A DNA stretch of 63,868 nucleotides, filler included, from Licmophora abbreviata (GCA_900291995.1; 13 parts of 13 records of this genome joined end to end with filler, not necessarily neighbours in it), one strand, 5' to 3'; shown: positions 4,595-60,333, numbered from the whole stretch's first letter. The notes: generated by a model not told the origin, from the sequence alone. Numbers and translations: made by a program.

Positions 4595-5868
4595 CTACAC
4601 GGATGCTTCCTTTACCATTCCATAGCCGAAGTAGTCCAACGTTCGACAAAGGAGCATGATGATTCCAAATAAGGACACGAAGATCACGCGACGCCAACTG
4701 GGACTTTCTAGAGTTGACTTTGACAAGGCCACGGCGTCCAGGCTTGCAACATCTTCGGCTGTCAGCGTCCATCCCAATGCACCAATCGAGTCGCGCGCTT
4801 GCTTGAGAGATCGACATCCGACAAGTGGAACTGTCCCATGCGCCATGCACCAGTTGAGTGCGATTTGGGCCATGCTCTTGTCATATTTGTTACTGAGCTC
4901 TTTCAAACAATTTCGAAGTGGCAGGATTTCTTTCCACTGCAGACGCAGCATCTTCGCCGGACGATTCGTTTTCCATGTCTGAGGGGTTAACGTGTCAGTC
5001 AAGAGACCCTGTCCAATAGGCGAGAAAGCAATGATCTTTACGCCGACGTCATGGCAGGCTTTTTCCATATCATTAAGCGCAGGGCTGTTATAGTCCAGCA
5101 AGCTGTAGTGAACCTGATTGACCACCACATCTACGCCATACTGCGTGAATAAAACAGAAACAGACATATGCCGTGAGATGGGATGCTGGTATCAGAAGAG
5201 GCTCCATCGACCATGGCGGTACACACCTTCTTCCCAGCGTCAACTGCGCGTCGAACTTGATTCGCGTCACAGTTGCTCAACCCAAACACTCGAAGGAGGC
5301 CTTTTCGTTTGCACAAAGCTGCACTCTCGACCCAGTATTCTATAGGACGCCAATGAACAGGGCTGTGCAATAGGTATATCGGAATGCATTCTATTCGCAG
5401 TCGTCGACATGACTCTCGCAAAGCTCGCTCAAAACAGCCATGACTATACCGCCATGGGACCGGTAAGAATTTCGTCATCAGGATCATGNNNNNNNNNNNN
5501 NNNNNNNNNNNNNNNNNNNNNNNNNNNNNNNNTTAATTAATTAANNNNNNNNNNNNNNNNNNNNNNNNNNNNNNNNNNNNNNNNNNNNACTACTAGTAGG
5601 AGCCTGCGCTAGTCGACCCAGACGCTTTTCAGACGTCCCTCCTCCATAGCCTTCCGCAGTGTCCCACAAGGTCACACCAGCGGATGAGAACTCTGAAACG
5701 ATGGCTCGTGCTTCTGACTCGCAAATGATTCCCTTTGGATTAATCACAGCTCGGTCTACCGGCGTCGTTCCCCACTGTAACGTCCCTACTGCCAAATTCA
5801 CCTTTAAGGCAATGTCTTCGCCAAGAAGGGTCCTTCGGTCGTCGCTTTTCTTTGATGGCAGGCATCAT
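4595..5868 (-). CDS. Aldo-keto reductase (pyridoxal-reductase-like), spans linker gap
   Basis: AVGTLQWG, WDTAEGYGGGTSE, YLLHSP, GLSN, NQVHYSLL, AFSPIGQG, QIALNW. Intron 5141-5226. The ATG at 5868 needs one A removed from the A-run near 5848 (MMPAIKESDDRRTLLG). Gap 5489-5588 lies inside. Confidence 0.85.
5489..5588. other. Artificial scaffold linker N44-TTAATTAATTAA-N44 (stops in all six frames); 12 copies
   Basis: Identical 100-nt linkers at 5489-5588, 7894-7993, 10299-10398, 12623-12722, 15318-15417, 26751-26850, 29167-29266, 32303-32402, 35919-36018, 47482-47581, 59490-59589 and 62541-62640. Confidence 0.98.
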
Positions 5869-7462: not shown

Positions 7463-8530
7463 CTAGTAGCCAGCTTCGAGACCAAACAACATGACCGACG
7501 AAGGGGAACGAGAGAGCTTTCCCTCTTCTTCCTTGTCGTCATCGACAGTTGGGTGCTGCTTCTCTTCCCAGGCATGGAATCCTTTCGCATGCGTCTCGGC
7601 GTGCAAGTGATGAACAAACTCATCCAAGTGTTCTTCCAAGTGTTCATCGCTGTCCATCTCGAAGTGAGACTCGAGGTGGAAACGATCTTCGAGCGCATGA
7701 AAGTCCACAGGCGCGGTAGTGGACGTGATGACATCAAAGTTGCCCTTGGCAGAGGCGCGGCGGAAGTAGCTGCGGGCGCAAGCGTAGGGATCAGTAGTCA
7801 CGACCGGATTCTCCGGGTGGAGGAAGTCCACGGCCGACTTTTGGAGAGCCTTGGCATCCTCCAAGATACGGGCACGCTCTTGGGCTTCCTCAANNNNNNN
7901 NNNNNNNNNNNNNNNNNNNNNNNNNNNNNNNNNNNNNTTAATTAATTAANNNNNNNNNNNNNNNNNNNNNNNNNNNNNNNNNNNNNNNNNNNNGGCTTCC
8001 TCGACAGTCTCCTGTAGGGCAGCCGCGGAGGGACGAGAAAAGTAGTTGCGTCCACAAGCGCAAGGATCCGTGGTGAAGACGGCTTCCTCGGGATGGGCAA
8101 AGTACTGGGCGAGCTGCTTGAGCTGCTTGGCATCTTCCAAGACGCAAAGGCGCTCGGCAAGAAACTCGTCGTAGTCTGTGTATGCAGGGAGGAGAGAAAG
8201 TTCCGATTTTGTGGTGAGCGAACGAAAGATACTTTCAGGCAGGAGCAGTGTCGGTGTTTGAGATTGACACGTACCATCGTCTTCGTCGTCACTCGAGTCC
8301 TCGTCCGACTCCTCCTCGGAGGTAGTGATCGAGGGGGTGTCGAGGACAGAATGCACGCCTGCATCCAAGGACGACGGGACATCTTCCGCCGCGACGAGTG
8401 GGGTCGCCTTGGCGGCGGTAGAGGGGGTGGATTCACGTCCTCCCACGTTCAGATCTTTCGGCTCCTCCTTCTTCTTCTTGAAGATAGGAGTAGCCTTGGA
8501 CTTGACGTGAGAGGACATTGAGGATCCCAT
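7463..8530 (-). CDS. Tandem-repeat protein of unknown function (about 50-aa repeat LEDAKxL...HPE...TTDP.AC.R.YF.R.SA), spans linker gap
   Basis: ATG 8530 (MGSSMSS). Intron 8176-8274. One repeat copy on each side of gap 7894-7993. His/acidic C-terminus ending LSRSPSSVMLFGLEAGY. Confidence 0.75.
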
Positions 8531-9049
8531 GGTGAAAGATAAGGGGGGTAAAGGAAAGGTAGAGGATTACTCTTGACTGGTAAGCTTTTCGATTGGATTG
8601 TGAGACACAAGGATGAGATCACAGAGAGTTTCAGAACAAAACTTCCAATCCGAACGAACGCACTCCAAGCGGGATGTCGCAGATCCTGTTCCTCGATGTC
8701 ATGTGGGTCCTACCATTGCTGAAGAGTGTGTAGAAATGTACAGAGGAATCAGTATCTGTTTTCTCGCAGATTCAAGCCAGCGAGCCAATCAGAGCAGGAG
8801 GTGTCAAGTCAGTCGAGCAGAACGGAAGAATGACATCATCCTCGTGCCATGGATCAGATTGGAGCTCGGAGCTCGATAGCAAGAACCAACGTCTGTCCTT
8901 CCATCGAGTCATTCGTATCTTTCTACGATATTCACGAAACAAAGATCGCGACGGCGCATGACCTCAATGAGAAGCCGGGCTCTGCTGCTACTGCGTCAAG
9001 CATAGAATTGCTCGATCGTATGATACGAACAAGGAAGGCCCGGCCGCCC

Positions 9050-10298
9050 ATGACTCGTCTCTTTGCGCTCGTCCTCGGCTTGATCCTCGCTAGTTCCATC
9101 ACGAATACGTCTTTTGGTTTTGTGTCCTCGGCCTTGGCTTGCAACAGCAACAACAAGAAACAAAATCAGAGGGTCAGTACTACTTGTAGTACCGGTAGTA
9201 CTGGAACTTCTATTTCAAGCAAATCTAGTACTTCTCTTAGCAGCAGCACCACCACCACCACCAGCATGTCGTCGTATACTTCATCCTACCTTTCAGACAT
9301 CCCCATGGGACCTCCAGATGCCATTCTAGGCATCGCGCAAGCCTTTCGTGCCAGTACAGACCCTCGCAAGGTCAATGTCTGCGTCGGTGCCTACCGCGAC
9401 TCCGACGGTCTCCCATGGGTGCTTCCCAGTGTCAGAGCTGCCGAACAAGTCATGATTCAAGAAAATGCCAACAAGGAGTATCTACCCATTGAGGGAGACA
9501 CTGCCTATGTCAAAAAGGCGCTCTCCTTTGCCTACGGAGCTAGTGCTGCCGTGGATGATGGTTCTTTGGCGACTGACTCCTGTTTGGCGGGAGTTCAGAC
9601 TCTGTCGGGTACCGGTGCGTGTCGGATCGGCGGTGAGTTCCTCGGTAGGTTCCTACCCACCTCTACAATTTACATTCCGAATCCCACCTGGGGCAATCAC
9701 TGGAAAATATTCAAGGAGGCTGGATTGCAGACTGCAGGATACCGTTACTACAGCCGTGCTACCAATCGACTCGACATGGACGGTCTATTGGAGGACATTC
9801 GAACTGCACCCGACCATAGCATCATTCTCTTGCACGCATGCGCTCACAATCCGACAGGCTGCGATCCCACACTGCCAGAGTGGGAACAGATTGCTCGAGT
9901 CATTCAAGAGAAGCATCACATTGCCTTTTTCGACTCGGCCTATCAGGGATTCGCGTCGGGGGATGCGGAACAAGATGCGCAGGCACTGCGACTCTTTGTC
10001 GAGAAGGGACTGCCCGTCATGTTGGCGCAGTCCTTTGCCAAGAACTTTGGATTGTACGGGGAGCGCTGTGGGACCTTTTCCGTCGTTTGCGAGAATGCGG
10101 AACAGCGAGACAAGGTCATGAGTCAGTTGCGCTTGATCATTCGTCCCATGTACTCGAATCCACCGAAACACGGCAGTAGTATTGTGCGAACTGTATTGAG
10201 CGACGAGATATTGACACAACAGTACTATACGGAATGTGCCAGTATGGCGCGACGCATTGGAGAAATGCGAACGAAACTCATGGAGACGCTGAAGGCCG
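9050..10298 (+). CDS. AAT: Aspartate aminotransferase (class I), probably plastid-targeted; 3' end lost in gap
   Basis: PPDAILG, KVNVCVGAYRD, QTLSGTGACR, PTWGNH, HACAHNPTGCD, FDSAYQGFASG, SFAKNFGLYGER. Signal peptide MTRLFALVLGLILASS...SFG-F followed by a Ser/Thr-rich transit peptide. Confidence 0.93.
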
Positions 10299-10422
10299 NN
10301 NNNNNNNNNNNNNNNNNNNNNNNNNNNNNNNNNNNNNNNNNNTTAATTAATTAANNNNNNNNNNNNNNNNNNNNNNNNNNNNNNNNNNNNNNNNNNNNAC
10401 TCGCGGCTCAAGCATGGCGACT

Positions 10423-12884
10423 CTACTTCGGTACACTCTCGCCCCAGCAGTACGGTTCCTTCCCGTACATGAAGGGCGGCGCGACAAAGCGTTTCCTTTC
10501 CGTGATCTGATTCAATGCCTTCATGTCCGCGGCGGAAAGGTCAGAGCTCGTACGAGACGACAAGACGTCACGCATGTGCTCCTCGGATCGACACTTGGGG
10601 ACGACGGCAACGCCTTGTTGAATGTTCCACTTTAAAACAACCTGTGCCGCCGAGCATGCGTTGCGATTCGCAACTTGCTGGACGATTTCATGTGATAATA
10701 GATCATCGCTCCCCTGTGCGAGCGGGCTGTGAGCCTGGATCAGAATATCATTCTGGGCGCAAAAATCAACCAACTCCCATTGCGGAAGGAGTGGGTGGCG
10801 TTCAATCTGGTTGACCAAAGGCTGGATATTGCATTTGGTGAGAAGTAGCAGGAGTGCCTCTGCGTTGAAGTTGGAAACACCGAGGGCGCGAACGAGTCCT
10901 TCAGTCTGACAAGATTCCATTTCGCTCCACACTTCTTGCAATACTTCCGTCGCAATCACTTCCGCCGGCCAGTGCAGCAACAGCAAATCGGCTCTCTGGA
11001 GGTTGAGGTTCGACAAGCTATCGGTGAGTTCTTGGCGTACTTGAGATGCGCTGGTGGCTCGCTTGGGCACCTTGACTGTGAAGAATGATGACGAGTCACC
11101 GTCGAGGCCTTTGCCAAGCTTATCTTCGTTCTTGTAGGTCGGAGCCGTGTCGAAAGCCTCGAAGCCCAGTTGGATGGCCTTGGAAGCGATGCCTTGAGCT
11201 TTCTTGCGTCCCAGGCCCATGGTGCCGAAAGTAATCGAAGGCAACGAGACTGGTCGAAGAGGAGAAAATGAGCGTGAAGCGGAGCAGATCGGTTCTACGT
11301 TGGAAGGCAATGACAGCTTGCGGTAGAATTCGGCCAGTCTTGCCGCTCCTTCAGCCGTACGCGTGACACTAATCAACGCAAGTCCTTCCTCATATTTGGG
11401 CTTGACCATCTTGTCGGACGAGTGCATAGCAAGTTTGGCACCCGAATCGCCTTGCACGCCACCTTCATGATTCTCGCGCTCCCTCACACGCTCCTCTATG
11501 ACTTTCTTGGGTGGCGACAAGACCACAGCATGGACCGGTACGCCTGCATCTTGCGCGATCCGAATGAAATGCTCACGCTGCGTTTCATCCAAGTGCATTC
11601 GATCCACAACCACCGATTGCTTGCGCTGCAATGCCGCCTGCGCGGCCTCTTCGACAGCCCAACGCGTTCCCGGCGCGCCGTCGTTGATTGTATCTTGCGA
11701 CAGATGAACCCAGTCTGTGTTGCCTTTCTCGTTTCCGTAGTCATGACTCTCTTTGTTCCTCTGCACAAGAGTCTGACAGAAGGTCGATTTTCCAGAACCC
11801 TGCACTCCTACCATAATGAGTAGAATCGGACCCTCTAGATATCCGCCGGTCAGTGCCGCACGCGTCCCCAGCGCTTCCTGTGGTGGTACAGTGTACGCCA
11901 GACGCTGGTGCTTCTTGCGCAGCTCTTGATGACTGTCCCCAAAATACTCTTCGGGAGTGTAAAAGTGTAAAGTAGCACCTTTCAACTCGCCCACATTTCG
12001 AGCAAAGCCGACATCGACACCTCCCTGCGGATCATCCTCATGTTCGATACTGTCTCCAACATAAAAACTCGACCTGACATCCCACTCCTCATTATTCTTA
12101 CAGCAGCATTGCTCCGCAACCTTCCACATATTGGCCGACGGTTTGTGATATCCCGACTTTTTGTTGGTCGACATGACCACGACCGAAACAGGCCTATTGT
12201 ATGACAGAGCCACTCCACGAGAGACTTGACATGCGTCGCCTTTTTTCCCTCAAACGCTCCTCGAATCGCACCCTGATTGCTAAAGATGGCAAGTTGGTAG
12301 CCTTCTGCATCGTAGAGATGTCGGAGTTTGGCAAGGACCGCGCGATTCCAGAGTTCGTAGTGCTCCATACGACTCGGCCATCCCGAGATGCGCCATGTCA
12401 GCAAGGTGCCGTCCAAGTCAAAGGCAGCGAGTTTCGTACGCGAGGAGGCATCGGGTGGTGCTCGACGCAACCTTCGAACCAAACAGGCTTCTCGGTAGAC
12501 GGACCAGGATGCGTTCGTCGTACTAATAGAAGCGTTCACTGGCGTCGGAAGAATGGGATCAATCGTACCAGGTGATTCGTTGGTGATGGAAGAAGATGGA
12601 TCCGTTGTTGTTGCTGTTGTTGNNNNNNNNNNNNNNNNNNNNNNNNNNNNNNNNNNNNNNNNNNNNTTAATTAATTAANNNNNNNNNNNNNNNNNNNNNN
12701 NNNNNNNNNNNNNNNNNNNNNNGTTGTTGTTGTTGTTGTTGTTAGGACTCTTCTTCTTTGTCTGCTTCAGTGGAAAGAAGTTCGTAAGAGAAGACTGAGA
12801 GGGACGTTCGTCCGACTTTTGTCGCTTGCAAGCAGGTGATGATGACAAGTCTGCGGATGCGTCCACTCGAGTAGGAGGAGCCAT
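10423..12884 (-). CDS. Polynucleotide 3'-phosphatase (HAD) + 5'-kinase (P-loop) + aldo-keto reductase fusion with N-terminal PIP box; spans linker gap; 1-nt frameshift near 12192
   Basis: HAD motifs AAFDLDGT, FSNQG, HKP, FYVGDS...FYTPEEYF. Kinase GVQGSGKST...SQDTI...VVVDRMH...HEGGVQG. AKR FDTAPTYKNE, TVK, LLLHWP, LGVSNF, NQIERHP, AHSPL, QVVLKWNIQQG...PK. QSSLTNFF at 12774-12797 on the far side of the gap. Confidence 0.85.
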
Positions 12885-13381
12885 GCTGCTGCTGGTGATT
12901 GGTCGACTGCGGTGTTTTGGGCCGTCGGATGAGGAAGAAGAAGAAAATCTCGAGCGATACAAGAGGTCCTACTTTATCCAGGGGATTCGTATTCGACTGG
13001 ACGGATGGTAGCGAACAATGGAGGGAAATTTGCGAACGACGAACGGAGGGAACGACCTTGCAAGTGTCGTGGTTGTTGTCATTGTAGGACGATACTAGAC
13101 TGTGACATAACAGCTAGTAGACGAGAGAGTTTTCCGCCTTGTTCCGTTTCTTGTGACGGCCAGACTGTTGGCGCGCCACGACTCATCGTAAGTCACGAGT
13201 CCACGACGACGCGTACATACGTCGTCCCCAATTCGGAACGAAACGTCCCGAAACCATGGTGCAACTTGCGGCGCCGCGCTTGTAGACTACTTGTAGTTAT
13301 ATAAAGTGTTCTACTACTATACTTCCATCTTGCAAGGGTCACGAGGCGTCAAATACACTACCAATAGCAGCAACCATCGTC

Positions 13382-14479
13382 ATGGCGAGGATAGATAGTA
13401 ATAGAAGTACCATCACAAGACCACCACCACTGCAACAACAACAACACCAATCCACCGCCGAGCATAACAAAAACAAAACTTCACCACATCATCATCATCC
13501 TCAGTGGCGCGAAGCCGTCGCGGGTGCCTGTGCCGGTGCCTTGGCCAAGACAGCAGTCGCTCCCGTTGAACGAGTCAAGTTGTTATTGCAGTTGCAGAAT
13601 AGTATTCAAGATTCCAGCTTGTTGCAACATGACATGAAAAAGAAGACAAATGCCTTCCGAATAGCCCGTGCAGTCTATCAAGAACAAGGTCTGCTTGCCT
13701 TTTGGAGAGGCAATACGGCAAATGTCTATCAGCAAGCCGGCACGGTGGGTCTCAATTTCATCTTGATGGACTGGTATCGACACGTGGCCGTGTCACCCTT
13801 GCTGCATCAATCGCTACTGTGGTTTCCTTCCAAACGAACCTTGGAACAACGCAAGAGACGGCGAGACCTCATTGGGAGTTTCCTATCCGGAGGTCTAGCG
13901 GGAGGGACGGCTACGACGGTTCTGTATCCGATTCAATTTTTGCGGACGCGACTGGCCATGGACGTGGGTGGAGATCAACAAACACGAATCTACAATCGAG
14001 GCATGCGTGGGGCCTTTGTCAGTATCTATCAGTCGGACGGCCTTCGAGGTCTCTATCAGGGCTACCCGATATCCGTCCTCGGTGTCATTGTCTACCGTGC
14101 CTTGCATCTAGGAGGATACGATGCCTTGAAAACGGAGTTGCTCTATTCGAAAACGCGAAAGGCTGACACGTCAATACATGCTAGTACTAGTCCAAACACA
14201 ACGCTCTCTTGGACCGAACGATTCGCATTGGCTCAAGTGGTCAGCCTCACGGCGGGTACTATTTGCTATCCGATTGACTCGGTCCGACGACGGCTCATGA
14301 TGCAAGCGGGCGTGCCTATTCCAGATCGACTGTATAATAACTCCATGGACTGTATGAGACAGGTGTATCGTACAGAGGGTCTTCGGGGTTTCTACCTGGG
14401 ATTGGGGCCCAATCTTGTGCGCAGCTTCGGAGCTGCGCTATTGTTGGTGGCATACGATGTCTTCAAAGTCATGTTATAA
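13382..14479 (+). CDS. Mitochondrial carrier, divergent ADP/ATP translocase-like
   Basis: Three carrier repeats (APVERVKLLLQ, YPIQFLRTRLAMD, YPIDSVRRRLMMQ), FWRGNTANV, and the AAC-like RRRLMM signature. Confidence 0.9.
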   Translation: MARIDSNRSTITRPPPLQQQQHQSTAEHNKNKTSPHHHHPQWREAVAGACAGALAKTAVAPVERVKLLLQLQNSIQDSSLLQHDMKKKTNAFRIARAVYQEQGLLAFWRGNTANVYQQAGTVGLNFILMDWYRHVAVSPLLHQSLLWFPSKRTLEQRKRRRDLIGSFLSGGLAGGTATTVLYPIQFLRTRLAMDVGGDQQTRIYNRGMRGAFVSIYQSDGLRGLYQGYPISVLGVIVYRALHLGGYDALKTELLYSKTRKADTSIHASTSPNTTLSWTERFALAQVVSLTAGTICYPIDSVRRRLMMQAGVPIPDRLYNNSMDCMRQVYRTEGLRGFYLGLGPNLVRSFGAALLLVAYDVFKVML

Positions 14480-14481
14480 TC

Positions 14482-14482
<1 letters not shown>

Positions 14483-14566
<84 letters not shown>
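14483..14566 (+). repeat. (CAA)~28 microsatellite
   Basis: Perfect CAA run starting 3 nt after the carrier stop codon. Confidence 0.97.
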
Positions 14567-14630
14567 GAAAACTTGAAATACCAATAGCTAAAAGATGAGA
14601 CTTGGTGATCCCTCCCAACGCCGCACTCAG

Positions 14631-17087
14631 TCATGGTACGTCACTGCCGTGCGACGGTCCGTTTCTAGTATCACCACCACACACAGCTGCAATCGCCTCG
14701 CTAGAAAAATCTACCCGCAAGTGGAACGTTTGTCTAAGCTCCTCCTTCGTCAGGGCAACGTTTGTGGCTTGGTAGGCTAGCCAGTCAGACGACTTTTCCA
14801 GCTGCAGCACCGTAACGACTTGAGAAACGCGCTCCCACTGTTCCAGAAACGACACTGCAGTGTTCACCTCGGAATTTGCGACAAAGTCCGATACGTGATT
14901 CTGAAGCAGCCGCACTTGTTTCGAAAGCAGCAACGAGCCCCAGTCAGACATTCTCTTGCTCCCATCCCAGAGAGCATTTAGAATGACCGCAGCCAGCCTG
15001 CAGCTCAACTCTCTGCTCATCGCCACGGAAACTTCAGCATCGCATCGATCCAAGTTCCGAAGAATCCGCGCCTGTTGAAGACAGCCCATCATGTCACGTT
15101 CCAATCGTTCGTCAGCCTCGGCCACGGAAAAATTGTGGGAAGTTAAATTATAATCCTCGTGACGAAAGAATTCACGCAGTGCGTCCAAGCACAGTGTGTA
15201 ACCACCGCGTGTCTTTGTGGAACTCCGCTGCATCTCTGCTGTCCCACACCACTCGGAGAGAATCTCGCTGACTTGATCACTCAACAGGCTCCGGTAAGCT
15301 CCAGCATAACGTAGGAGNNNNNNNNNNNNNNNNNNNNNNNNNNNNNNNNNNNNNNNNNNNNTTAATTAATTAANNNNNNNNNNNNNNNNNNNNNNNNNNN
15401 NNNNNNNNNNNNNNNNNAGCGTAGCCAGGGACCCAAGGAAGCCAGTTGACGTTGGAGCACTTGAAGGCGGTGAAGTTGGGTTACTTTTGCTGCCGCCACC
15501 GTTGGCACCACCCAAATCGTCATCGAGCGCATCCAACAGAGCCGATGCAAACGAGTCTCTGTTTCCGCTCCTTGGAGGGGAATCGTTGGTTGATTTCGTT
15601 TCGATCGTTTCGTCGGGCACCGCCCAGCATCCACGCTGCTCCACCAAAGCTTGATGAACACCCGACTGAAACGTATCGTCTGTACTCCACACATCATGCG
15701 ACAAGGAATGCGCAACCGTTCCCATGGCTTGTACCGACCGCGTGGACGTGGCTCGCTCCAACGCTCTTGTACTTAGGTACTGCGCATCTTCCACCACACT
15801 CGGAACTTGCAGCGACTTGCCAATGACAATGTGTACCGGACAAGCAAGGTCGAGTGCACTTTGCCACTGTTGTGTTACCAGAAATCGTTCGAGCGCTGCA
15901 TACGTCCACGTCCAGTCCGGCAAAAGCTGGTCCGCAACAATCGTCTGCCTAGAATTCTGCATCAGAGTCTGATATCGCGCTAGTAGTTGACACCCAAACG
16001 CCATTTCTTCGATGACGGCATCAAGCTGTGCCAGGTCAGCAATTGCTTGTACGCTACTACCAGAAGCAGTTGCCACAGTGAGGCTCGTTGACGACGACTT
16101 TGTCATCCATCCCGGTATTGCCCGATCTTCCCAGAACCAGTCTGAAATTGTCTTGGTCAGACTCTGTGCTTGCTCGTCCAGAACCTGAATCGCCCCTTCG
16201 CACATGCGCCGCAACCACGTTACCATGCTATCATTCCCGTTCTCCACAGACGATGGTAGTCCTTGCATCCATACTTGTAGAGGATGCGCGAGTGCACTGG
16301 CCTGTCCCAAGATGACCGTCATGGCATGGGAGTGTGGCTGTGATGGCGCAGAAGAAGCGGCAGTAGTATCAGGATCGTCGCTATCCTCGTGCACAGCAGT
16401 CAAAGTAGACTTCATGGATGATCTTTGCTGTTGCGCCTTTCTCCAATGAGCTAAATGAGCAATGGCCTGTTTGGCCCGCTGGCGAAGTATCGATCGTTGG
16501 TAGGCGGCATACTGATCGACAATGTCTTGCATCATCTTCGACCCTACGGATGACTTATGGTGTTGTGATGCTGCAGATGGCGACACAACCATGGAAGATT
16601 TTGTTCTAGAGCCTTCTTCTCCATTGTGATTGGAGTCCCAGACTAGCAAGAGCGTCAATTCAAACAAACGCGCCACCGCTCCTTGATTCTCCACGAGTTT
16701 TCCCAGCGTGACAATGCTCTGCAGTGTATTCTGCATCCCCTCAAGTACTTTTTGTCGAACGTGCAAAAACAAGTCCCGTCTGGCAAAGTCATTTGTATGT
16801 TCCTCTTCCGGTCGATCTAGAATATATCGATGCAAGCGTGGCAGCTGATTCAATACGAGGTCTTCCAATTCGTACTGCCAATCTTCGACAGCCGGTGGAT
16901 CATGAGCCGCGTCGTCGGCGTCGGCGACTTGAGCGGAGACTCGCAAGTGCACTTGCTGTCTGTGTTCCTCTATTCGTAGAAGTATCTGTGCCACTCCGTC
17001 TTCAAAGGATGATGTGTTTGACGAAGCACTAGAATGCAGTGGCGGTGATGGAGGATGCTCGTCGTCTTGATGGCGTTGGTGCTCCAT
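14631..17087 (-). CDS. COG4: COG4-like (conserved oligomeric Golgi complex subunit 4), spans linker gap
   Basis: SVVEDAQYLSTRALERATST, WGSLLLSKQVRLLQ, ERVSQVVTVLQLE and LTKEELRQTFHLRVDF match the COG4 middle and C-terminal patterns. Gap 15318-15417 lies inside. Confidence 0.75.
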
Positions 17088-26346: not shown

Positions 26347-28114
26347 ATGGGTCGAGGTGGATGTAACCCCGTGGCGAACTGGCCAGCGAAGAACCCAGAA
26401 GCAGCAGAACTTACTACGCTAGCCGCTGCGACGAAGATATCCGCTGCACTTCTGGCGACGAAATGCACCCCCGACGAGTGCTGGATCGTCCACCGCGGCG
26501 TGGTGTACGACGCCACTGCGTGGCTGGCGAAACATCCGGGGGGATCGAGGACGATCCTCTCGAACTCCGGACGGGATGCAACGGCGGTGCTTCTTGCCAT
26601 GCATGATGCCAAAGTTCTGGAGGGGTCGCTACGCCGGATGAGGAGGGTCGGTATCCTCGTTGAAGAGCCTGCATCTGACGAGACCTTTGAAGAGGAGAAG
26701 AAGCAAGACGACGACCTCGATTCTGGGGTCGTTGGCCTCAGGAAGAGCACNNNNNNNNNNNNNNNNNNNNNNNNNNNNNNNNNNNNNNNNNNNNTTAATT
26801 AATTAANNNNNNNNNNNNNNNNNNNNNNNNNNNNNNNNNNNNNNNNNNNNGGTCGTTGGCCTCAGGAAGAGCACCATGGCGTGGAGGAAGCTTCGAGAAG
26901 CTGCGATCGAACGCGATTTCTTGTTGCTAGAAGAACGCCTAGCTCGTGAGGGTTGGTATGAGCCCGGACCTCGTGCTTATTGGGTCGCTGTGCTCAGGGC
27001 GCTCGTTATTCTGTGTGTCGGGCTCAGGTTGATCCTATGGGGTGCGGAATCGAGCACTTTTGGTGCGGTCGTGCTTGGATCGGTCTTTCTTGGATTGTTC
27101 TTCCAACAGGTCGCATTCTTCGGCCACGACGCCGGCCATGGCTCGATCACTGGCCACTTCTCGTCCGACGAGGTCATTGGCCTGCTCGTTGGAAACACCC
27201 TCGCCGGGATTGATATTCACTGGTGGAAATCGACCCACAACGTTCATCATGGCGCGACAAACTCTATCCACGACGACCCTGACATTCAGCACTTGCCCTT
27301 GTTTTGCTTCGAGGAAGACATGGTCCACAGTGCGGAAGAAACCGGGGTCGGACAAGAAGTTGGCTTGTGGTCAACCTACCATGGAAGGTTCATGTCGGCA
27401 AGCGACATTGCCAGGTCAATGATGCAATACCAGCATCTGTATTACTTCCCCGTCATGGCCTTTGCTCGAATCAATCTGTACATCCAGAGCATCATCCACC
27501 TTGCGCGGACGTGTCCCTTCCGAACTTCCGCTGGTACCTCTCCTGTCAAAGCGAACAGTGGTGGCGACCAAACGAAGACGCCCTACGAATGGGGTCATGC
27601 CAAGCCTGCACTGTGGACAGCGCAGGTCTTCTGCCTATGTGTCAACTACAGTCTCTGGTACATGCTGCTGTCGTCCCTTGACGCGACAAGCGCGTGGACC
27701 TGCTACCTTGTTTCGCACTGGGTTGCTGGAATTCTGCACGTACAGATCCTTCTGTCTCACGTTGCCATGCATTACCACAACCACTCCGCGAGGGATGGCG
27801 TTGACGACAACAGCGCCTCCCCAGAGCATGAAGTCGGGGTTGGCTTTCACGAGCTCCAGGCTCTGACTACGATGGACATTGCCTGCCACCCTTCTCTTGA
27901 CTGGTTCCACGGCGGTCTACAGTTTCAGCTGGAGCACCACTTGTACCCCCGCGTGCCTAAATTTAAGCTACGGGGACTTATCCCTTTGGTCGACGCGATC
28001 TTTGCCAAACACGGGGTGCCCGTCGTCCGCAAAGGATTCTTCGAGGGAAACGTCATGGTGTTGCGGCATATGGCACGAGTGGGAAAGAACATATCTCGGA
28101 TTAAGCGAGACTAG
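26347..28114 (+). CDS. Cytochrome b5-fused front-end desaturase (sphingolipid delta-8/SLD-like), spans linker gap
   Basis: MGRGG start, b5 HPGG, His boxes HDAGH, HNVHH and QLEHH, plus DPDIQHLP. The 24-nt overlap across the gap (26727-26750 = 26851-26874) restores one frame. Confidence 0.92.
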
Positions 28115-29166: not shown

Positions 29167-29597
29167 NNNNNNNNNNNNNNNNNNNNNNNNNNNNNNNNNN
29201 NNNNNNNNNNTTAATTAATTAANNNNNNNNNNNNNNNNNNNNNNNNNNNNNNNNNNNNNNNNNNNNCAAAACCGATGAGTCAACTCATCGCCTGCGATCT
29301 GCGATTGTGGCTGATTTACCAGTACAAAAAAATGTCTTATCAGATATCTGAATCGCTAGCAAATGTGAGCAAATGCTAGTGAAAAATACGTATTTCAAAC
29401 GTACACACTTTTTCCGCGTCGATTCGATTCGACTAATTCGAATCGCACTGCAGCTCAGCGGACGCCTAGCAGACTGTCGCGCGTTTCATTTTGTTTGCGG
29501 TGTCGTGTCGGGAGGACAGCTCGACCAGGATACTCGAATACGGGTACCTTGTTGTTGAGAAAGCGGAAATATTGACGCAGGATGAGCGTGAAACAGC

Positions 29598-32219: not shown

Positions 32220-32605
32220 GATAAGTGCACTTATCATAGAAGTGAGGGGTTTATCCTAGTCTACGTCGTACCGTGTACCAGGTATTCCGATCGATATTAG
32301 GGNNNNNNNNNNNNNNNNNNNNNNNNNNNNNNNNNNNNNNNNNNNNTTAATTAATTAANNNNNNNNNNNNNNNNNNNNNNNNNNNNNNNNNNNNNNNNNN
32401 NNTTATCCGCTTTTTCCAGCATACCGTCTGTACGACTACACCGTACTCTAGATGCAGTGTTTTCTGGAGCTCATAGCTCTTAACTACACTGAACACTGCT
32501 CTCTGACGTCATTCACGAACTCCGATCTTCTGCTAGATCTTGGTCGGCACTTTCGTCATCCACACAAAAACGCCGCCGGCACATTCTCTTCTTAGTTTCG
32601 CGACC

Positions 32606-34239: not shown

Positions 34240-37200
34240 ATGGCGACGACGACGACACACGAATCCACTTCATCGCGCCGTCCATCATCCCCGTCTGCGA
34301 GGGCAATTTGCTCCATCTGGATGCCCAACAGTATCGTTGGAAACGCGGACTGTAATGAATCAGTATTGCTGAAATTCGAGAACCATCAAGAGATTGGGCG
34401 ACGAGAACTACTCACGTGCATGCAGCGTGCGTGCTATCATCATCCTGCGGGTGCTGATAGCAGCAACGCACGACGGTGCCGACCGCGAGGCTGCTGCTAT
34501 TCCAAGATGAAGGAGTGGAGATCATTTTTGAAGCGCGGTGACATGTTAAAGGTCTTTTTGGATGATCTGGACGGGAGGGTTCATTTGCGAGTGCACGGAG
34601 AAAACGCGGCCATGATGGTACACGTCAACGATGACAAGGTCGTCTTTCGTGTTGCGGGATACCACGACTGGTCGGAGAACTCGGTTGCGATTCCAGAGGG
34701 CACTGTCATTCGTATTCAGCATCCGAACTATCCGGAGGCTGCATTGGAGTATCGCGTGCTGGAGAATCCGGCAGAGTTGGATGAATCAGTGACAAAGCAA
34801 TCGTCGTCACCATCAAAGACCACAGCAGCAGTGAACCCTAATGAAGACGATGGCTCATATTGTAAGAGTGACAACATCGCTGCGGTGGTACAGGCCGAGC
34901 GCATCCCAGCTTTTATTCGTACGCCATCGGCAACGCGTGCAACGAACACCGACGACGACGATGCCGACGACGACGATGCAGCGCCAGGGACGCAAGATTT
35001 GCTTCGACGGATCGGTGACAGCATTACGCGGGACGAAGATAAAGAAGAGGAACAAATACTGCTACGAATAGATTGTGGTGGGTCGAATACAGCAAATTCA
35101 ACTTCACCAAGTGTCATCGTCGTCAACAATGATGCTGATCTTCGGTCTGGAACGAACGTTGTGAAGCCCCCATCTGTGGAGGACCCTCCCGTTGATGATA
35201 TTAATGAGGCGTGTCAGGATGCAGCCGATTTTGTGGTACGCGATTCTACCAGACATAGAGCTTGTGAGCTGGATGGTGACATGAAGCGGACAACAGCTCT
35301 GGGCGAGAATAGTCAAGATAGCAGCGTCGTTCCGCCTTTTCCATGCTCGGTTTATTTCGTTTCGCTCGGGAGAAATCTTCCACCGAAACGTGTGGAGATT
35401 TTGATGAGAAGAGCCGAGGCTTTGGGAGCTAGTATTACAAATGACTTTCTACATTCGACGCACGTTGTTCTGGATGAAAGTCTCGAGGGAAATGCTCCGT
35501 CGGTCGCGGCGTATCTGGGATATCGGAATGCTGCAGAGTTGAAGTTTGTTCTCGACGAGGTGAGGTGCCATGCTATTGGCTGTGAGCGGGAAATGTGCTT
35601 TTGGACAATATCGTGCAACTCACTTGGGGCTTGGTTGACTGACTCTTCTACAGCGCACTATTCAGCCTGTAAAGGCCCGGTGGATTGCCAAGGCGGGCGA
35701 AAGGTTGCTAGCGCCGAGACTAGACGAGCTATGGAATGGACTTGCTCTGGTACAGGGCAAGGTATGATGCGATTACCGTTATTATCGAGGAAACGACGCT
35801 ATTTTGAATAAATCTACTAACCGTCCTGCCTCCTGTTTCCACTGGATGCAGAAACGCAACAGAACTGGCAATCGCGACGCAAGCGGCTCCAAGCACCCGA
35901 AACGGCCCGCCAGCCGAGNNNNNNNNNNNNNNNNNNNNNNNNNNNNNNNNNNNNNNNNNNNNTTAATTAATTAANNNNNNNNNNNNNNNNNNNNNNNNNN
36001 NNNNNNNNNNNNNNNNNNCCGGCGAAAGCCCGCCCCTGAGGAATATGGCCTTGTCGGAACTTTTCTTGAATATATCAAAGTGCTATCAAAAGTATGGCAT
36101 CGATGGTCGTGATGAATGGGGGCAATACGCGTTCAACAAGGCGGCAGGCCGCTTGAGGCATCTTGACTTTGAAATAGTGAACGACAAACATGTCCTTGCT
36201 CGAGTCGCCAAAGTGCCTGGCATTGGAGATTCGACCATGAGAGTGATAAAGGAGTGGGTTGATAAGGGGACATGCTCAAAGATGGAAGGGTTCAAGAACG
36301 ATCCACATCGTCGAGCTGTCAAGGCGTTTAAAGACATTTGGGGCGTGGGGCCAGCAGAAGTGAGTGATGATGGGGCAGTCTTTCATCTCGTGTCTCTCTC
36401 TCTCTATGTGTGGGGTTCCTCACTGTTCATTCCTCCGTTTCAACTCACCCTGACTTAGGCTGAAAAGCTCTATGCAAACGGATATAGAACAATTGAAGAC
36501 ATTCGTGCCGCTATTGCTACGAGCAAACTCCGTCTCTCACGGAATCAGCAAGTGGGCGTGAAGTGCTACGAAGACTTACTCGACCACATGAGCCGTAGCG
36601 AAGTGGAAGCCATTGGCGAAGTCGTCAAAACTGCGATTGTGGACTTGATTCCAGGTGCCAATGTGCTAATCATGGGAAGCTATCGCAGAGGCAAGTCTTC
36701 ATGTGGTGATATAGATCTCCTGATTACGCATCACGACCACGTAGCGACAACACCCTATGGTGCACTCGGCAAGATTGTCGATCGCCTTCGGAACGAGGGG
36801 CACATGTCTTATCATCTTACAGAACCAGCGGGCATGACTACACTGCCGGATCCCGATCATGAAACTAATACGTTCCACGAGATCGCCTCACCGTCCAAAT
36901 CACTCCATCTCCGCGAACACGAGTCGTCTCAAATGTACATGGGAGTCATTCGTTCGCCCGTTGCACCCCACCGTCAACGTCGAATCGACATCAAATTTTA
37001 CCCCTACGGCGAACGAGCCTTTGCTTCCTTGTACTTCACGGGCAATGGCTTCTTCAACCGAAGCATGCGTTTGTACTCCAAGGAATACAAGAAAATGTCG
37101 CTCAACGATCACGGTTTTTTCCCGTCGCCGCGGGAAGTGCTCAGAGTAGGAACGTCCGGAGACCAATGGAACGACTGCCGATTGAAGCCGATACGGAAAG

Positions 37201-47481: not shown

Positions 47482-48415
47482 NNNNNNNNNNNNNNNNNNN
47501 NNNNNNNNNNNNNNNNNNNNNNNNNTTAATTAATTAANNNNNNNNNNNNNNNNNNNNNNNNNNNNNNNNNNNNNNNNNNNNACTGGGTGATACTATGATT
47601 GCTTGAAGCGTTTTGATATAAGCAATATGATAAATGTGGACCGAGAGAAAGATGTATTTTACAGGTACTCCAACCATAGACGCTGAAATCCGGTTAGCAA
47701 AGTAGTGTTCCCTAGGACGACGACGGTTACGGAAAACTTGCTAAGAAGAGTAGTAACCGTCTTCAGTGCCAGCCCAGAAGGCAGGAACAGAAGAGGTTCG
47801 AGGGACCGGCTGAGGGTGGTTTAGCTGTTGTATCCGCTTGTGTGACGCGGACAAGGAACGGTCTTCGACGCTACCGTAGATATCTTCGACTCTCTTGCTT
47901 GGGTGACCCTTTTGCAATAGAGAAGGGAAAAGGCTAGTTAAGGCGTAGCAAAGGGCCAAAATCTGTCTGCTCAAGTCTATGTTAGTCTATAGATAGTACG
48001 TAGGCGTAGTTTGAAGATGACACGAAACGGCATTTGAAGAATAGTTCGACTCACTCGACGCATTTCCAAACACACACATTGACCTTTTGACTCACTCCAC
48101 GACACCACATCACGACGATTCGCACTTGCCTCCTCTCAGTCCACCTTCCCGCTCTTCTGTCTATCAGAGAGCTTGAAACGCCAAGCTACCATTGTGTCGA
48201 ACAACACAGATCGTTTCTACGACATATCACGATTCCAGTTGGCTCATCTCGAAACTCTCAGGTAGGATACGGAAATCAGATGCCGTACGAGCTTCAAGAC
48301 TCCGATGTTGGACAGATCGTTTTTTTAGTTGGAGAATTCAACGTGATCCCTTGTCTGCGTCAAATGCTATTGCATGGTCGAAACAAATTCAAATGATCTG
48401 ACGGCTTTGCACGAG

Positions 48416-59489: not shown

Positions 59490-60333
59490 NNNNNNNNNNN
59501 NNNNNNNNNNNNNNNNNNNNNNNNNNNNNNNNNTTAATTAATTAANNNNNNNNNNNNNNNNNNNNNNNNNNNNNNNNNNNNNNNNNNNNCAGATCAAAAC
59601 TGGAATGTCCGTCACCGAATCATTCAGGCCCCAAGATCTTTCCGGATACCGTTTCCGCGATCTTCGGCCTTTTAATTTCTCTGTTCATGCTTCTCGCAGC
59701 ACTTGCTCTCCTCCCACATGTTCACTCACGCTAGGGTCAGCTTCTAGAAGAAGCCTGTGATAGTTGGATTCGTGTCGTTGTTCTGTCGAGACGTGTTTGG
59801 TACAGTAACTTGGATGTGGTCGAGTTGGCGCCGCAGAACATCAGCTTCAAACTATCCGACAAGTTGAAAATCGGTGGCTCTGAAGGTCACGTTTTCGAAA
59901 ACGATGAGATCTATGAATGTACTCAACTATGTAGGTCGTTATTTTTCATTCTATTTAAATACCGCCGCCAAAGAGGGACTGGCTGATAGGTCAGTCGTGC
60001 TTTAGTATGGAATGATACGTATAATCTACGCGAAGCATGAGTTTAGTAAGCGCAAAGAGGGATAAACCTGTCCTGCGTCCGTTAATCCTGTGCGTGCAGA
60101 GCCACGAGTTTGAAAGTTGCACGGATCTAGGCTTTCGCCACAACGGCCACACTCCAAAATTCTGTCTTGGGTTCCTTGTGATTGGCGGTGGCAGCAGACA
60201 GCGCAGTCGGCATTGATACTGTATCTTAGCGTGGGGAGAGACGATTACCTCGACGGAATAGAAAAGGCTTGTTTCAGTACCGTCGAGAAATCCAGAGTCT
60301 TCGAATCTTGCACTTCTTTTTCCCGTCGCCATC

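Follow-up and report, generated by a model that had tools for sequence, protein, structure and literature searches.

A predicted nucleic-acid end-healing enzyme fused to an aldo-keto reductase in Licmophora abbreviata and its relatives

Domain organization of the fused gene

The window analysed here is a stretch of Licmophora abbreviata DNA (GCA_900291995.1) of 63,868 nucleotides in all. One protein-coding gene occupies positions 10423..12884 of its minus strand, and the sequence together with its relatives confirms the initial annotation, which saw in it a fusion of a PNKP-type end-healing enzyme with an aldo-keto reductase (AKR). All features described below lie on the minus strand, except for an assembly linker, which has no strand. 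The gene runs from a Met to a TAG and is interrupted by that linker and by one frameshift. Its start codon (12882..12884) is the first Met 3' of an in-frame stop upstream; relatives begin 10-40 residues ahead of their own PIP box.

The N-terminal region carries a canonical PIP box (Qxx[LIM]xxFF), QSSLTNFF at 12774..12797, identified by motif match and from the relatives; it also fits the wider pattern Qxx[LIM]xx[FY][FY]. A basic cluster, KRQK, lies at 12816..12827, and relatives have K-R-x-K immediately before the PIP box. We take this cluster to resemble a nuclear localisation signal. Among the 93 relatives that have both a Met start and HAD motif I, 72 contain a PIP box in the N-terminal region, compared with 0.145 expected from 200 shuffles. 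No PIP box was found in 16 further members checked, which include centric diatoms, a haptophyte and the pennates Nitzschia and Mayamaea.

The next domain is a HAD DNA 3'-phosphatase that is split between two reading frames. Its N-terminal half (12213..12434, upstream frame) matches PNK3P positions 1-73 (E 3.3e-10) and contains motif I, FDLDGT, with D71 and D73 of the upstream frame at codons 12419-12417 and 12413-12411, and motif II, FSNQ, at 12281-12276. Its C-terminal half (11941..12186) matches PNK3P positions 82-161 (E 2.6e-7) and contains motif III, HKP (K codon 12144-12142), and motif IV, YVGD (D codon 12054-12052). Thus all four motifs are present, and they are kept wherever the relatives cover the region. 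Both of the families matched here, PNK3P and TIGR01664, consist of DNA 3'-phosphatases. The phosphatase is followed directly by the kinase in one polypeptide, although the frameshift at 12193-12196 breaks the reading in this copy. The match to TIGR01663 (E 1.6e-13, NCBIfam) does not reach equivalog level (49.9 bits versus 502.8), a score obtained with the downstream frame alone, from which half the phosphatase is missing.

The P-loop 5'-OH polynucleotide kinase (11323..11823; AAA_33, E 1e-19) contains the Walker A motif GVQGSGKST (K codon 11790-11788), a catalytic Asp in SQDT and the motif VVDRMH. Walker A is found in 118 of 120 relatives, the other two being gaps, and the catalytic Asp (SQD186T) in 119 of 120. 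Among solved structures, the best matches are two 5'-OH kinases of Mucorales, 9DRZ (E 1.4e-17) and 9D8A (E 9.1e-15), and the Asp of SQD186T aligns with their Asp-bearing motif. These kinases are described as requiring Asp36, as phosphorylating both DNA and RNA 5'-OH ends and as favouring GTP (PMC11571804). Mouse PNKP matches across the phosphatase and the kinase (E 2.3e-5). The domain is a predicted polynucleotide kinase.

The C-terminal domain is a DkgA/YvgN-like AKR (10426..11235) that ends in a family-specific tail, PPFMYG..YCWG. Its tetrad consists of D367 and Y372 in FDTAPTY (codons 11151-11149 and 11136-11134), K393 in TVK (11073-11071) and H426 in LHWP (10974-10972). Between kinase and AKR lies a variable linker (11236..11322) that contains no stop and no Met able to start a whole AKR barrel. 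As this linker is variable and probably flexible, a composite kinase-AKR active site is not implied.

Every motif listed in the initial annotation was present on the minus strand, and the three Pfam families that it proposed to check all pass their gathering cut-offs: PNK3P with 31.0 and 40.4 bits on the two halves (cut-off 22), AAA_33 with 71.7 bits (cut-off 27) and Aldo_ket_red (PF00248) with 138.6 bits (cut-off 24), the last over profile positions 2-290 of 291. According to the annotation, kinase and AKR lie in one uninterrupted ORF (10423-12213) with the C-terminal half of the phosphatase. The three do share one frame, but the extent given was slightly short: from one stop to the next, the open frame spans 10423-12249 (608 codons). 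Because the kinase-AKR junction lies inside this frame, the fusion is independent of the assembly gap and of the frameshift.

Conservation of the fusion and state of the Licmophora copy

The fusion is not peculiar to this genome. AAA_33 and Aldo_ket_red occur together in 120 of the 120 best database relatives, and PNK3P accompanies them in 111. Among these best 120, the named relatives comprise eight diatom taxa and two MMETSP transcripts labelled 'complete'. A 909-aa transcript from the haptophyte Haptolina is 39% identical across PNKP and AKR. The architecture is thus conserved among diatoms and also found in at least one haptophyte, and we regard the fused gene and its family as real with near certainty. 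The initial annotation named two findings that would speak against it, namely transcripts that end or are spliced before the AKR, and orthologues that are always separate genes. Among the orthologues, complete transcript-derived ORFs cover all three domains, and 111 of 120 relatives carry the three in one protein. The annotation also knew of no characterised PNKP-AKR fusion. Our literature search, in which some of the matches were seen at title or abstract level, likewise found no paper on one.

The idea that neighbouring PNKP and AKR genes were merely read through in the assembly has next to no chance of being right and is already contradicted, given a junction without a stop or a Met placed to start the whole barrel, the one-protein architecture of the relatives (complete transcripts among them) and a Fistulifera solaris model that lacks the AKR only in the sense that it ends 23 residues inside it, as other 'AKR-less' close relatives likewise run into the AKR; nothing was found in its favour. 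Candidates for natural AKR-less relatives were rejected. Four models (P0139, P0146, P0152 and P0164) stop inside the AKR, and five others (P0141, P0143, P0153, P0155 and P0156) have no Pfam AKR match and their tails diverge. A search of short proteins for AKR-less forms returned 15 fragments only.

The three domains are not conserved to the same degree. Haptophyte-type members have lost HAD motifs II and IV, and one of them (P0198) also lacks the second Asp of motif I, whereas the catalytic residues of the kinase and the AKR are kept. In protein-atlas clusters, all members (100%) have the AKR and 94-100% have AAA_33, but outside diatoms only 19-48% have PNK3P; these figures serve as a lead only. 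Judged from these sequences, the kinase and the AKR are the conserved core of the family, even where the phosphatase decays.

The Licmophora copy itself has two interruptions. The linker at 12623..12722 (44 N + TTAATTAATTAA + 44 N) lies in the low-complexity N-terminal region and is one of 12 fixed 100-nt linkers of the same type in the 64-kb window. The piece past it, with its Met at 12884-12882, aligns to the N-termini of relatives; thus order and orientation across the linker are correct. The frameshift, which had been reported near 12192, is real in the given sequence and was placed at 12193..12196 (...WLCHTI / RPVSVV...). Frame A (...EWLCHTI) ends at base 12195 and frame B (RPVSVV) begins at the same base, so that one base is shared. 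As relatives run on without interruption at this site (...WLxxxIDRPLxxV), 1 nt (or 4 nt) is missing. An intron was rejected because there is no room for one: relatives are contiguous and at most 1-2 residues are missing.

We lean towards an error of the draft assembly, with its 12 placeholder linkers in 64 kb, as the source of the frameshift; about 590 codons downstream of it are open, with all catalytic residues intact. A real lesion is somewhat the less probable of the two, and it would concern this copy alone, independently of how the family is interpreted. It would leave a pseudogene, or an N-terminally truncated kinase-AKR protein starting at Met26 of the downstream frame. For such a lesion speak the shift in the sequence as given, where relatives run contiguously, and the lack of a homopolymer run that might invite a typical sequencing error.

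Relatives of the kinase and of the reductase

Several known systems resemble parts of the fusion. Mammalian PNKP (FHA, 3'-phosphatase, 5'-kinase; 1YJ5, 3ZVL, 3U7E/G) likewise has a HAD phosphatase followed by a P-loop kinase on one chain, with the same motifs. It differs in having an FHA domain, whereas the N-terminal piece of the fusion matches no Pfam family and many members have a PIP box in that place. It also lacks the C-terminal AKR, and the kinase of the fusion is nearer another kinase subgroup than mammalian PNKP. The P-loop, catalytic Asp and DR motif of the Mucorales enzymes (RazKIN, 9D8A and 9DRZ; Ghosh et al., RNA 2024, PMC11571804) align with the kinase of the fusion, but these are stand-alone proteins of 165-176 residues that are described as assigned to tRNA splicing (PMC11571804).

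The fused kinases fall into a clade of 50 rows (SH-aLRT 98) that includes all 47 AKR-fused kinases and two PNKP-TDP1 fusions of chlorarachniophytes. The latter, from Bigelowiella natans and Amorphochlora amoebiformis, are uncharacterised; their PNKP module is 37% identical to that of the Licmophora protein up to the end of the kinase, and a second enzyme is joined at the same C-terminal point, although the partner is a tyrosyl-DNA phosphodiesterase and not an AKR. One of these two records is named 'PNK FHA domain-containing' by its source. The presence of PNKP-TDP1 fusions inside the kinase clade shows that this C-terminal position can be filled by an enzyme whose product is a substrate for PNKP.

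In kinases that are more distant, the fusion partners are aprataxin, macro, PBZ, WWE and a DNA polymerase. The initial annotation had noted that the kinase recalls that of plant aprataxin, and this likeness is borne out: 34 of the 127 kinase relatives scanned are kinase-aprataxin fusions, and the five whose names were looked up come from green plants or green algae. In these proteins (kinase, often macro, then HIT and zinc finger) a related kinase is joined to a DNA-end-cleaning enzyme, as in the fusion described here, but the kinase belongs to another clade and there is neither a HAD phosphatase nor an AKR. A weak match to TIGR01313 (E 5.6e-4) prompted a gluconate-pathway reading, with a gluconokinase-like kinase and a DkgA-like reductase. 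It was ruled out, as the matches to PNKP and polynucleotide kinases are far stronger and the fusion partners of the related kinases are DNA-damage modules.

The AKR is most similar, among characterised enzymes, to YvgN (E 4e-37) and DkgA (E 3e-36). Its match to the NCBIfam DkgA model (E 1.4e-46) scores 158.8 bits and does not reach the equivalog cut-off of 425; by sequence it is DkgA-like, not a DkgA. Each residue of the tetrad is present in 120 of 120 relatives and also in the haptophyte-type members. N460, Q481 and E483 are equally invariant (120 of 120), and K552 is also kept. In a tree of 122 rows, 43 fused and 9 partial AKR domains lie on one side of a branch with SH-aLRT 100, and all 70 nearest stand-alone AKRs lie on the opposite side. 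Identity is 43-73% inside the fused family and 37% or less outside it. The fused AKR domains thus group in a clade of their own that includes none of the sampled stand-alone AKRs.

YvgN (3D3F), DkgA (1MZR) and the prostaglandin F synthases (4FZI, 1VBJ) belong to the same AKR family, with about 270 residues, the same tetrad and 30-37% identity. The fused AKR, apart from forming a separate clade, differs from them in that residues are inserted after HWP and the C-terminus is extended by a conserved tail. In the pocket, P-K-R follows the catalytic Lys where stand-alone enzymes have W-N/P-x, so that the pocket Trp is replaced; His replaces Y/W at position 507 and R at 558, and the Asn found in 103 of 104 stand-alone AKRs at 562 has given way to I/L/V. 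We assume that these pocket positions are equivalent to those in aldose-reductase numbering. The three cofactor-pocket changes may alter cofactor binding. The fused domains are also somewhat more basic, with a median net charge of +1 versus -5 for 104 stand-alone relatives (Mann-Whitney p 2e-12), which is a modest shift. The basic charge and the P-K-R together hint at an anionic substrate.

Protein-atlas clusters of 69-266 members that list AKR and AAA_33 (with or without PNK3P) are mostly from Myxococcota, Acidobacteriota and Planctomycetota; these are candidate fusions known by their listed domains. An alignment pattern scan of 185,579 species genomes yielded 79 loci and 0 bacterial kinase-AKR fusions among them. 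The three loci inspected (L006, L021 and L074) each hold a stand-alone AKR or kinase, and among the other 76, the match is confined to the AKR part of the query in 73 and to its kinase part in three. A kinase-plus-AKR query of 301 Myxococcota genomes found 0 fusions and 87 with AKR-only matches; the long open frames checked in this search were GC-rich artefacts. When the kinase alone was used as the query, 401 Myxococcota genomes (a draw that overlaps with the 301) gave 0 AKR fusions and two places, one a lone kinase and the other a kinase with a metallophosphatase, and 301 Planctomycetota genomes gave 0 AKR fusions and three places, namely APH plus kinase twice and one bacterial Pnkp.

Possible role of the reductase

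The gene appears to be a real instance of a conserved, multi-domain nucleic-acid end-healing enzyme whose AKR is catalytically equipped. As an explanation of the whole we favour an end-healing enzyme whose AKR reduces an aldehydic DNA terminus, to which we give a probability of roughly 45%; that the AKR would act on some nucleic-acid-borne aldehyde we consider about as likely. In this model the protein would be nuclear, and the members that bear a PIP box would be tethered to PCNA. The phosphatase and the kinase would make 3'-phosphate/5'-OH ends ligatable, as PNKP does, and the AKR would reduce an aldehyde on a damaged nucleic-acid end, with NAD(P)H as the reductant.

The most coherent substrate would be the nucleoside 5'-aldehyde terminus that arises from oxidation of deoxyribose at C5'. 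Its reduction would give a 5'-OH, which is the substrate of the fused kinase, and the fused phosphatase would remove the 3'-phosphate across the same break. A single protein could then make an oxidative nick ligatable again by direct reversal, with no nucleotide being excised. We know of no enzyme reported to reduce DNA 5'-aldehyde ends. As a specific claim, that the AKR is a DNA-end aldehyde reductase which converts the 5'-aldehyde to 5'-OH is tentative and rather unlikely when taken by itself. Nevertheless, it fits the logic of the fusion better than the substrates that had been proposed earlier because its product is a PNKP substrate. Ring-opened abasic sites and 3'-unsaturated aldehydes are weakened as candidates, since their reduction gives no PNKP substrate.

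5'-Aldehydes are described as being among the most abundant strand-break ends of sugar oxidation (bioRxiv 10.1101/2025.02.19.636396; PMC12564780; PMC3825254). The end is characterised as abundant, as stable for days and as having no known dedicated end-processing protein (bioRxiv 10.1101/2025.02.19.636396; PMC12564780). Breaks of this kind are described with a 3'-phosphate or 3'-PG, and the resolution of a 5'-aldehyde at double-strand breaks is called 'essentially unknown' in the same source (PMC3825254). Long-patch BER is stated to handle 5'-aldehyde ends in vitro (PMC12564780).

Several points stand against a DNA-end role. The nearest characterised AKRs act on small molecules, and long-patch BER already removes 5'-aldehydes in vitro. 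Three positions of the cofactor pocket are changed, the shift in charge is a modest one, none of the 16 further members checked has a PIP box, the bacterial genomes and loci searched gave 0 kinase-AKR fusions, and the copy in the window is frameshifted.

An unlikely alternative is that the AKR, although attached to a repair enzyme, is an ordinary carbonyl reductase for small molecules that protects near DNA and takes no part in end repair. Its targets could be methylglyoxal, lipid-derived or polyunsaturated aldehydes, or the furfural and base propenals that come from oxidised deoxyribose. The small-molecule reductases YvgN and DkgA as closest characterised relatives, the invariant tetrad and a flexible linker suited to an independent catalytic module would all be expected of such an enzyme. 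It would leave unexplained, however, why none of the sampled stand-alone AKRs falls in this AKR clade, why the kinase-AKR core persists despite decay of the phosphatase, and why TDP1 sits in the same slot of a sister lineage. The Pro-Lys-Arg in place of the pocket Trp and the more basic domain also speak against it. Moreover, the link to diatom polyunsaturated aldehydes, which the initial annotation had drawn, is weakened by the occurrence of the fusion outside diatoms, in a haptophyte, and by the bacterial atlas clusters that list the same domain pair.

It is quite improbable that the AKR is an NAD(P)H-binding sensor or scaffold, no working reductase, that ties the activity or recruitment of PNKP to redox state. 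Kv-channel beta subunits, which have the AKR fold, are thought to couple activity to redox state in this manner. Three canonical cofactor-pocket residues do differ from those of stand-alone AKRs, and the place of the domain is taken in other lineages by recruitment modules or different partners. All 120 relatives share the tetrad as well as N460, Q481 and E483, however, which suggests that catalysis is under selection, even if a sensor AKR may retain the tetrad too.

More improbable still is a role in healing RNA ends, in tRNA splicing or RNA repair, with the AKR acting on an RNA- or nucleotide-linked carbonyl. Among solved structures, the kinase is closest to enzymes described as tRNA-splicing RNA 5'-OH kinases, but the same source describes them as phosphorylating DNA too (PMC11571804). 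The match of the phosphatase to the DNA 3'-phosphatase families PNK3P and TIGR01664, the PIP box in 72 of 93 relatives and the fusion of the wider kinase group to DNA-damage modules (TDP1, aprataxin, PBZ, macro, WWE and a DNA polymerase) also argue against RNA as the target.

If the AKR does reduce 5'-aldehyde ends, NAD(P)H-dependent reduction would join the chemistry of DNA repair. This would explain how phytoplankton under heavy exposure to light and ROS cope with 5'-aldehyde breaks, and it would provide a reagent that turns 5'-aldehyde ends into ligatable ones. A reductase fused to a kinase that uses its product turns the 5'-aldehyde question into one that can be tested at the bench. If our reading of the reductase is wrong, the family would still display an unusually clear domain-fusion logic in end processing, as the partners AKR, TDP1 and aprataxin are spread over two related clades of one kinase group.

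Structure of the phosphatase-kinase-AKR gene

The gene at 10423-12884 on the minus strand encodes a DNA 3'-phosphatase, a P-loop kinase and an aldo-keto reductase (AKR), in that order and with intact catalytic residues, and this arrangement is conserved as one protein. The downstream frame is open from stop to stop, from 12249 down to a TAG at 10425-10423 (608 codons). Pfam comparisons of this frame found, above the curated cut-offs, the C-terminal half of the phosphatase family PNK3P (residues 22-103; profile 82-161 of 161), the P-loop kinase family AAA_33 (residues 143-263; E 1e-19) and a full Aldo_ket_red domain (residues 339-583; profile 2-290 of 291; E 3e-40). The N-terminal half of PNK3P, with the motifs FDLDGT and FSNQ, lies directly upstream in another frame of the minus strand (12434-12213; profile 1-73; Pfam E 3.3e-10). 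These are the domains that the initial annotation had read from motifs alone, and every motif it quoted is present in the window. It had also held that the fusion does not depend on a gap or a frameshift in the gene. We agree, because the kinase-AKR junction (11322-11236) is stop-free and the sole methionine near the AKR start sits within the barrel (GTMGLG), leaving none ahead of it.

At the frameshift, the upstream frame ends in EWLCHTI and the downstream frame begins with RPVSVV; the last base of the first and the first base of the second are both 12195. As 16 aligned relatives are uninterrupted across this site (WLxxxIDRPLxxV), one base is missing at 12193-12196; counting the Asp codon as well, the loss is four bases. 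An intron is ruled out because these relatives read straight through and leave no room for one. We think that the frameshift is probably a sequencing or assembly error, since the assembly is a draft and about 590 intact codons follow the shift; a real lesion is a possible, less favoured explanation.

The 'gap' at 12623-12722 consists of 44 N, TTAATTAATTAA and 44 N and is a linker of fixed length (100 nt). The window contains 12 identical 100-nt linkers (5489-5588, 7894-7993, 10299-10398, 12623-12722, 15318-15417, 26751-26850, 29167-29266, 32303-32402, 35919-36018, 47482-47581, 59490-59589 and 62541-62640), each giving stops in all six frames. Thus, the window is a draft of joined contigs of about 2-12 kb each. 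Genes crossing a linker lose an unknown length of sequence. The piece beyond the 12623-12722 linker starts at Met 12884-12882 and reads M...KRQK...QSSLTNFF, like the N-termini of relatives; the join is therefore right in order and orientation.

Conservation of the fusion and its catalytic sites

A search of 5.8 billion protein clusters, in which 8000 candidates of 334-1064 residues were scored, gave 170 relatives at E <= 1e-5. Each of the best 120 of these 170 carried AAA_33 and Aldo_ket_red, and 111 also carried PNK3P; the nine without PNK3P were 421-610 residues long. Taxon names, known for a minority of matches, were Amphora, Epithemia, Nitzschia, Mayamaea, a Bacillariaceae MAG, Attheya, Cyclotella and Pseudo-nitzschia. 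Two matches were MMETSP transcripts marked complete, and the Thalassiosira profunda form of the protein has 1139 residues. A more distant cluster includes a haptophyte transcript (Haptolina brevifila, 909 residues) with all three domains; over the stretch between the phosphatase and the C-terminal end, its identity to the window's protein was 39%. The search for this architecture that the initial annotation had recommended recovered the fusion from the named diatoms and from at least one haptophyte.

One close relative, P0139 (Fistulifera solaris GAX19146.1), is annotated as a bifunctional polynucleotide phosphatase/kinase and breaks off after the first 23 AKR residues, so this model of a three-domain gene is probably truncated. 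Several other close models that seem to lack the AKR also end inside it, or have divergent tails. Complete transcripts with all domains, together with models that stop inside the AKR, contradict for the orthologs the two outcomes that the initial annotation had named as fatal to the fusion, namely transcripts ending before the AKR and orthologs that are always separate genes. Public-database names of family members are automatic ('DNA 3'-phosphatase', 'aldo/keto reductase', 'hypothetical protein'), and a literature search, with most matches judged from listings, found no study of a PNKP-AKR fusion family. The window holds no second copy of the gene.

When the 120 relatives were aligned with MAFFT, the Walker A Gly and Lys were present in 118 (the other two being gaps), the kinase Asp in 119, and D216 and R217 in all 120. 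The HAD nucleophile Asp was found in 105 of the 106 sequences covering that column. The sole exception is the closest full-length relative, P0005, in which motif I reads FGLDGT, with Gly for the nucleophile; this may reflect an error in sequencing or an inactive phosphatase. Haptophyte-type sequences have FANKG as HAD motif II and lack the Gly-Asp of motif IV. Another divergent member has changes in three HAD motifs: I (at its second Asp), II and IV. All of these sequences retain an intact Walker A, QDT Asp, DR motif and AKR tetrad. This pattern suggests that kinase and AKR are the pairing that survives decay of the phosphatase. Protein-atlas figures, taken as a lead only, point the same way: in clusters where 100% of members have the AKR and 94-100% have AAA_33, the share with PNK3P is 100% for diatom members but only 48% for the haptophyte cluster and 19-42% for bacterial clusters.

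The initial annotation did not mention a canonical PIP box, QSSLTNFF, at 12797-12774 on the minus strand, with KRQK ahead of it. The pattern Qxx[LIM]xxFF precedes the phosphatase in 72 of the 93 relatives that begin with Met and in which HAD motif I can be recognised, compared with a mean of 0.145 after the N-termini were shuffled. It was missing from all 16 further members checked, including those of Cyclotella, Thalassiosira, Attheya, Haptolina, Nitzschia inconspicua and Mayamaea. In other proteins PIP boxes mediate PCNA binding and nuclear action, and by analogy we infer the same role here. Five centric-diatom-type members (P0142, P0144, P0149, P0151 and P0105; 1059-1183 residues) have about 300-520 residues before the phosphatase. 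This region contained no PIP box in any of the five, and no Pfam family at E 1e-6 in the first four.

Kinase lineage and its fusion partners

Among solved structures, the phosphatase-kinase part best matched the stand-alone Mucorales kinases 9DRZ (E 1.4e-17) and 9D8A (E 9.1e-15), followed by mouse PNKP (C-terminal half of the phosphatase plus kinase, E 2.3e-5) and the kinase of bacterial Pnkp. According to PMC11571804, these Mucorales kinases serve tRNA splicing, phosphorylate 5'-OH ends of both RNA and DNA, prefer GTP and require an Asp; this Asp aligns with D186 of the window's kinase. The NCBIfam PNKP equivalog model matched both domains (E 1.6e-13), far under its cut-off. The module shares the defining motifs of PNKP and, by motif-level criteria, would work like it; it differs from animal PNKP in having no FHA domain and in matching below ortholog grade.

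With the phosphatase-kinase part as query, phmmer gave 916 matches at E <= 1e-3 from 1.84 billion representatives, and Pfam was run on the 127 new proteins among the best 150. The AKR was carried by 27 of them. Another 34 were kinase-aprataxin proteins (HIT plus zinc finger, often with macro or PBZ), and the five looked up came from green plants or green algae; the likeness to plant aprataxin's kinase noted in the initial annotation thus holds. Two were PNK3P-kinase-TDP1 proteins of chlorarachniophytes (P0170 and P0183; 1119-1159 residues), one of them named an FHA-containing protein by its record's source. WWE occurred in three; P0241 is a related kinase fused to WWE plus a U-box; single proteins carried a UBA domain (P0248, PNK3P-kinase) or a family-B DNA polymerase (P0249, a related kinase).

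In a tree from a short kinase alignment (111 rows, 181 columns; IQ-TREE quick search, LG+G4), 47 AKR-fused kinases, the two TDP1-fused kinases and one fragment formed a clade (SH-aLRT 98), with aprataxin-fused and plain PNKP kinases outside it. The TDP1 pair falls among the AKR rows through unstarred branches only. Up to the kinase end, where the partners diverge, the Bigelowiella-type PNKP-TDP1 and the window's protein share 37% identity. The same C-terminal slot, in a related lineage, therefore holds an enzyme that makes a PNKP substrate: a review's figure legend lists TDP1 among the sources of 3'-phosphate ends.

A pattern scan of species genomes yielded 79 loci, none of them a bacterial kinase-AKR fusion, and no such fusion was found in two overlapping draws of Myxococcota genomes (301, then 401) or in 301 Planctomycetota genomes. 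These searches turned up bacterial Pnkp-type genes in one Planctomycetota genome (L106, G541:C23; kinase, metallophosphatase and ligase) and one Myxococcota genome (L108, G269:C1; kinase and metallophosphatase), which are ordinary members of a known RNA-repair family.

Proposed function of the AKR and genomic setting

We propose that the AKR acts on an aldehyde borne by nucleic acid, to which we give a probability of about 0.45. In our model, the AKR would reduce a nucleoside 5'-aldehyde DNA terminus to a 5'-OH, the fused kinase would phosphorylate this 5'-OH and the fused phosphatase would remove the 3'-phosphate, making the nick ligatable again, while a PCNA tether would hold the protein carrying out all three steps. 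The 5'-aldehyde is proposed because of the TDP1 precedent, because the kinase-AKR pairing outlives the phosphatase, and because this is, to our knowledge, the one aldehyde-to-PNKP-substrate conversion that can be named in DNA-end chemistry. This specific substrate is a tentative choice. The substrates suggested in the initial annotation, ring-opened abasic sites and 3'-unsaturated aldehydes, are possible but less favoured, as they yield no PNKP substrate upon reduction. Passages in two reports describe the 5'-aldehyde end as long-lived and among the most prevalent hydroxyl-radical products, with no dedicated end-processing protein and with long-patch base excision repair as its presumed repair route (bioRxiv 10.1101/2025.02.19.636396; PMC12564780). 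Another text calls the fate of this end at drug-induced double-strand breaks 'essentially unknown' and describes such ends alongside 3'-phosphate or 3'-phosphoglycolate (PMC3825254). Should the AKR prove to reduce DNA ends, that activity would in itself be new.

The domain belongs to the AKR superfamily by model score and tetrad; it is DkgA-like, not a DkgA. Among proteins of at most 333 residues, matches fell into two tiers: fragments and partial models at 43-73% identity, including partial Phaeodactylum tricornutum and Pavlovales sp. records, and bacterial and fungal AKRs at 37% or less. In a quick-search tree of 122 domains from a short alignment, one branch (SH-aLRT 100, length 0.42) separated 43 fused and nine short or partial AKRs from the 70 nearest stand-alone ones, and none of the 122 was a stand-alone member of the fused clade. 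Comparing 116 fused domains with 104 stand-alone relatives, we found a median net charge of +1 versus -5 (Mann-Whitney p 2e-12). After the catalytic Lys, fused AKRs have Pro-Lys-Arg, whereas stand-alone ones have Trp first in 59/104 and never Lys second. Fused AKRs also have Arg484, His507 for Tyr/Trp, His558 (Arg in 78/104 stand-alone) and no Asn at position 562 (Asn in 103/104). In addition, they carry inserted residues after HWP and end in an additional conserved tail, PPFMYG..YCWG. Such differences would be consistent with a bulky, anionic substrate and perhaps with an altered cofactor preference.

The nearest characterised relatives are the small AKRs YvgN and DkgA and protist prostaglandin F synthases, and the domain might instead be a tethered small-molecule carbonyl reductase; with the residue changes just described, we consider this unlikely. 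A non-catalytic NAD(P)H-binding module is improbable: the cofactor-side residues N460, Q481 and E483 are each present in 120/120 relatives, and so are the catalytic Asp, Tyr, Lys and His. That the enzyme serves RNA ends, as the Mucorales kinases do, is very unlikely for a protein with a putative PCNA-binding motif.

The flanking genes have no bearing on the function of the PNKP-AKR gene. A class I/II aminotransferase gene (8834-10298, plus strand; Pfam E 2.4e-68) runs towards the 3' end of the PNKP-AKR gene and loses its C-terminal part to the linker at 10299. A mitochondrial carrier gene with three Mito_carr repeats (13286-14479, plus strand) is divergent from the PNKP-AKR gene and is followed by a long trinucleotide repeat (14469-14640) that reads as T, N or V runs depending on the frame.
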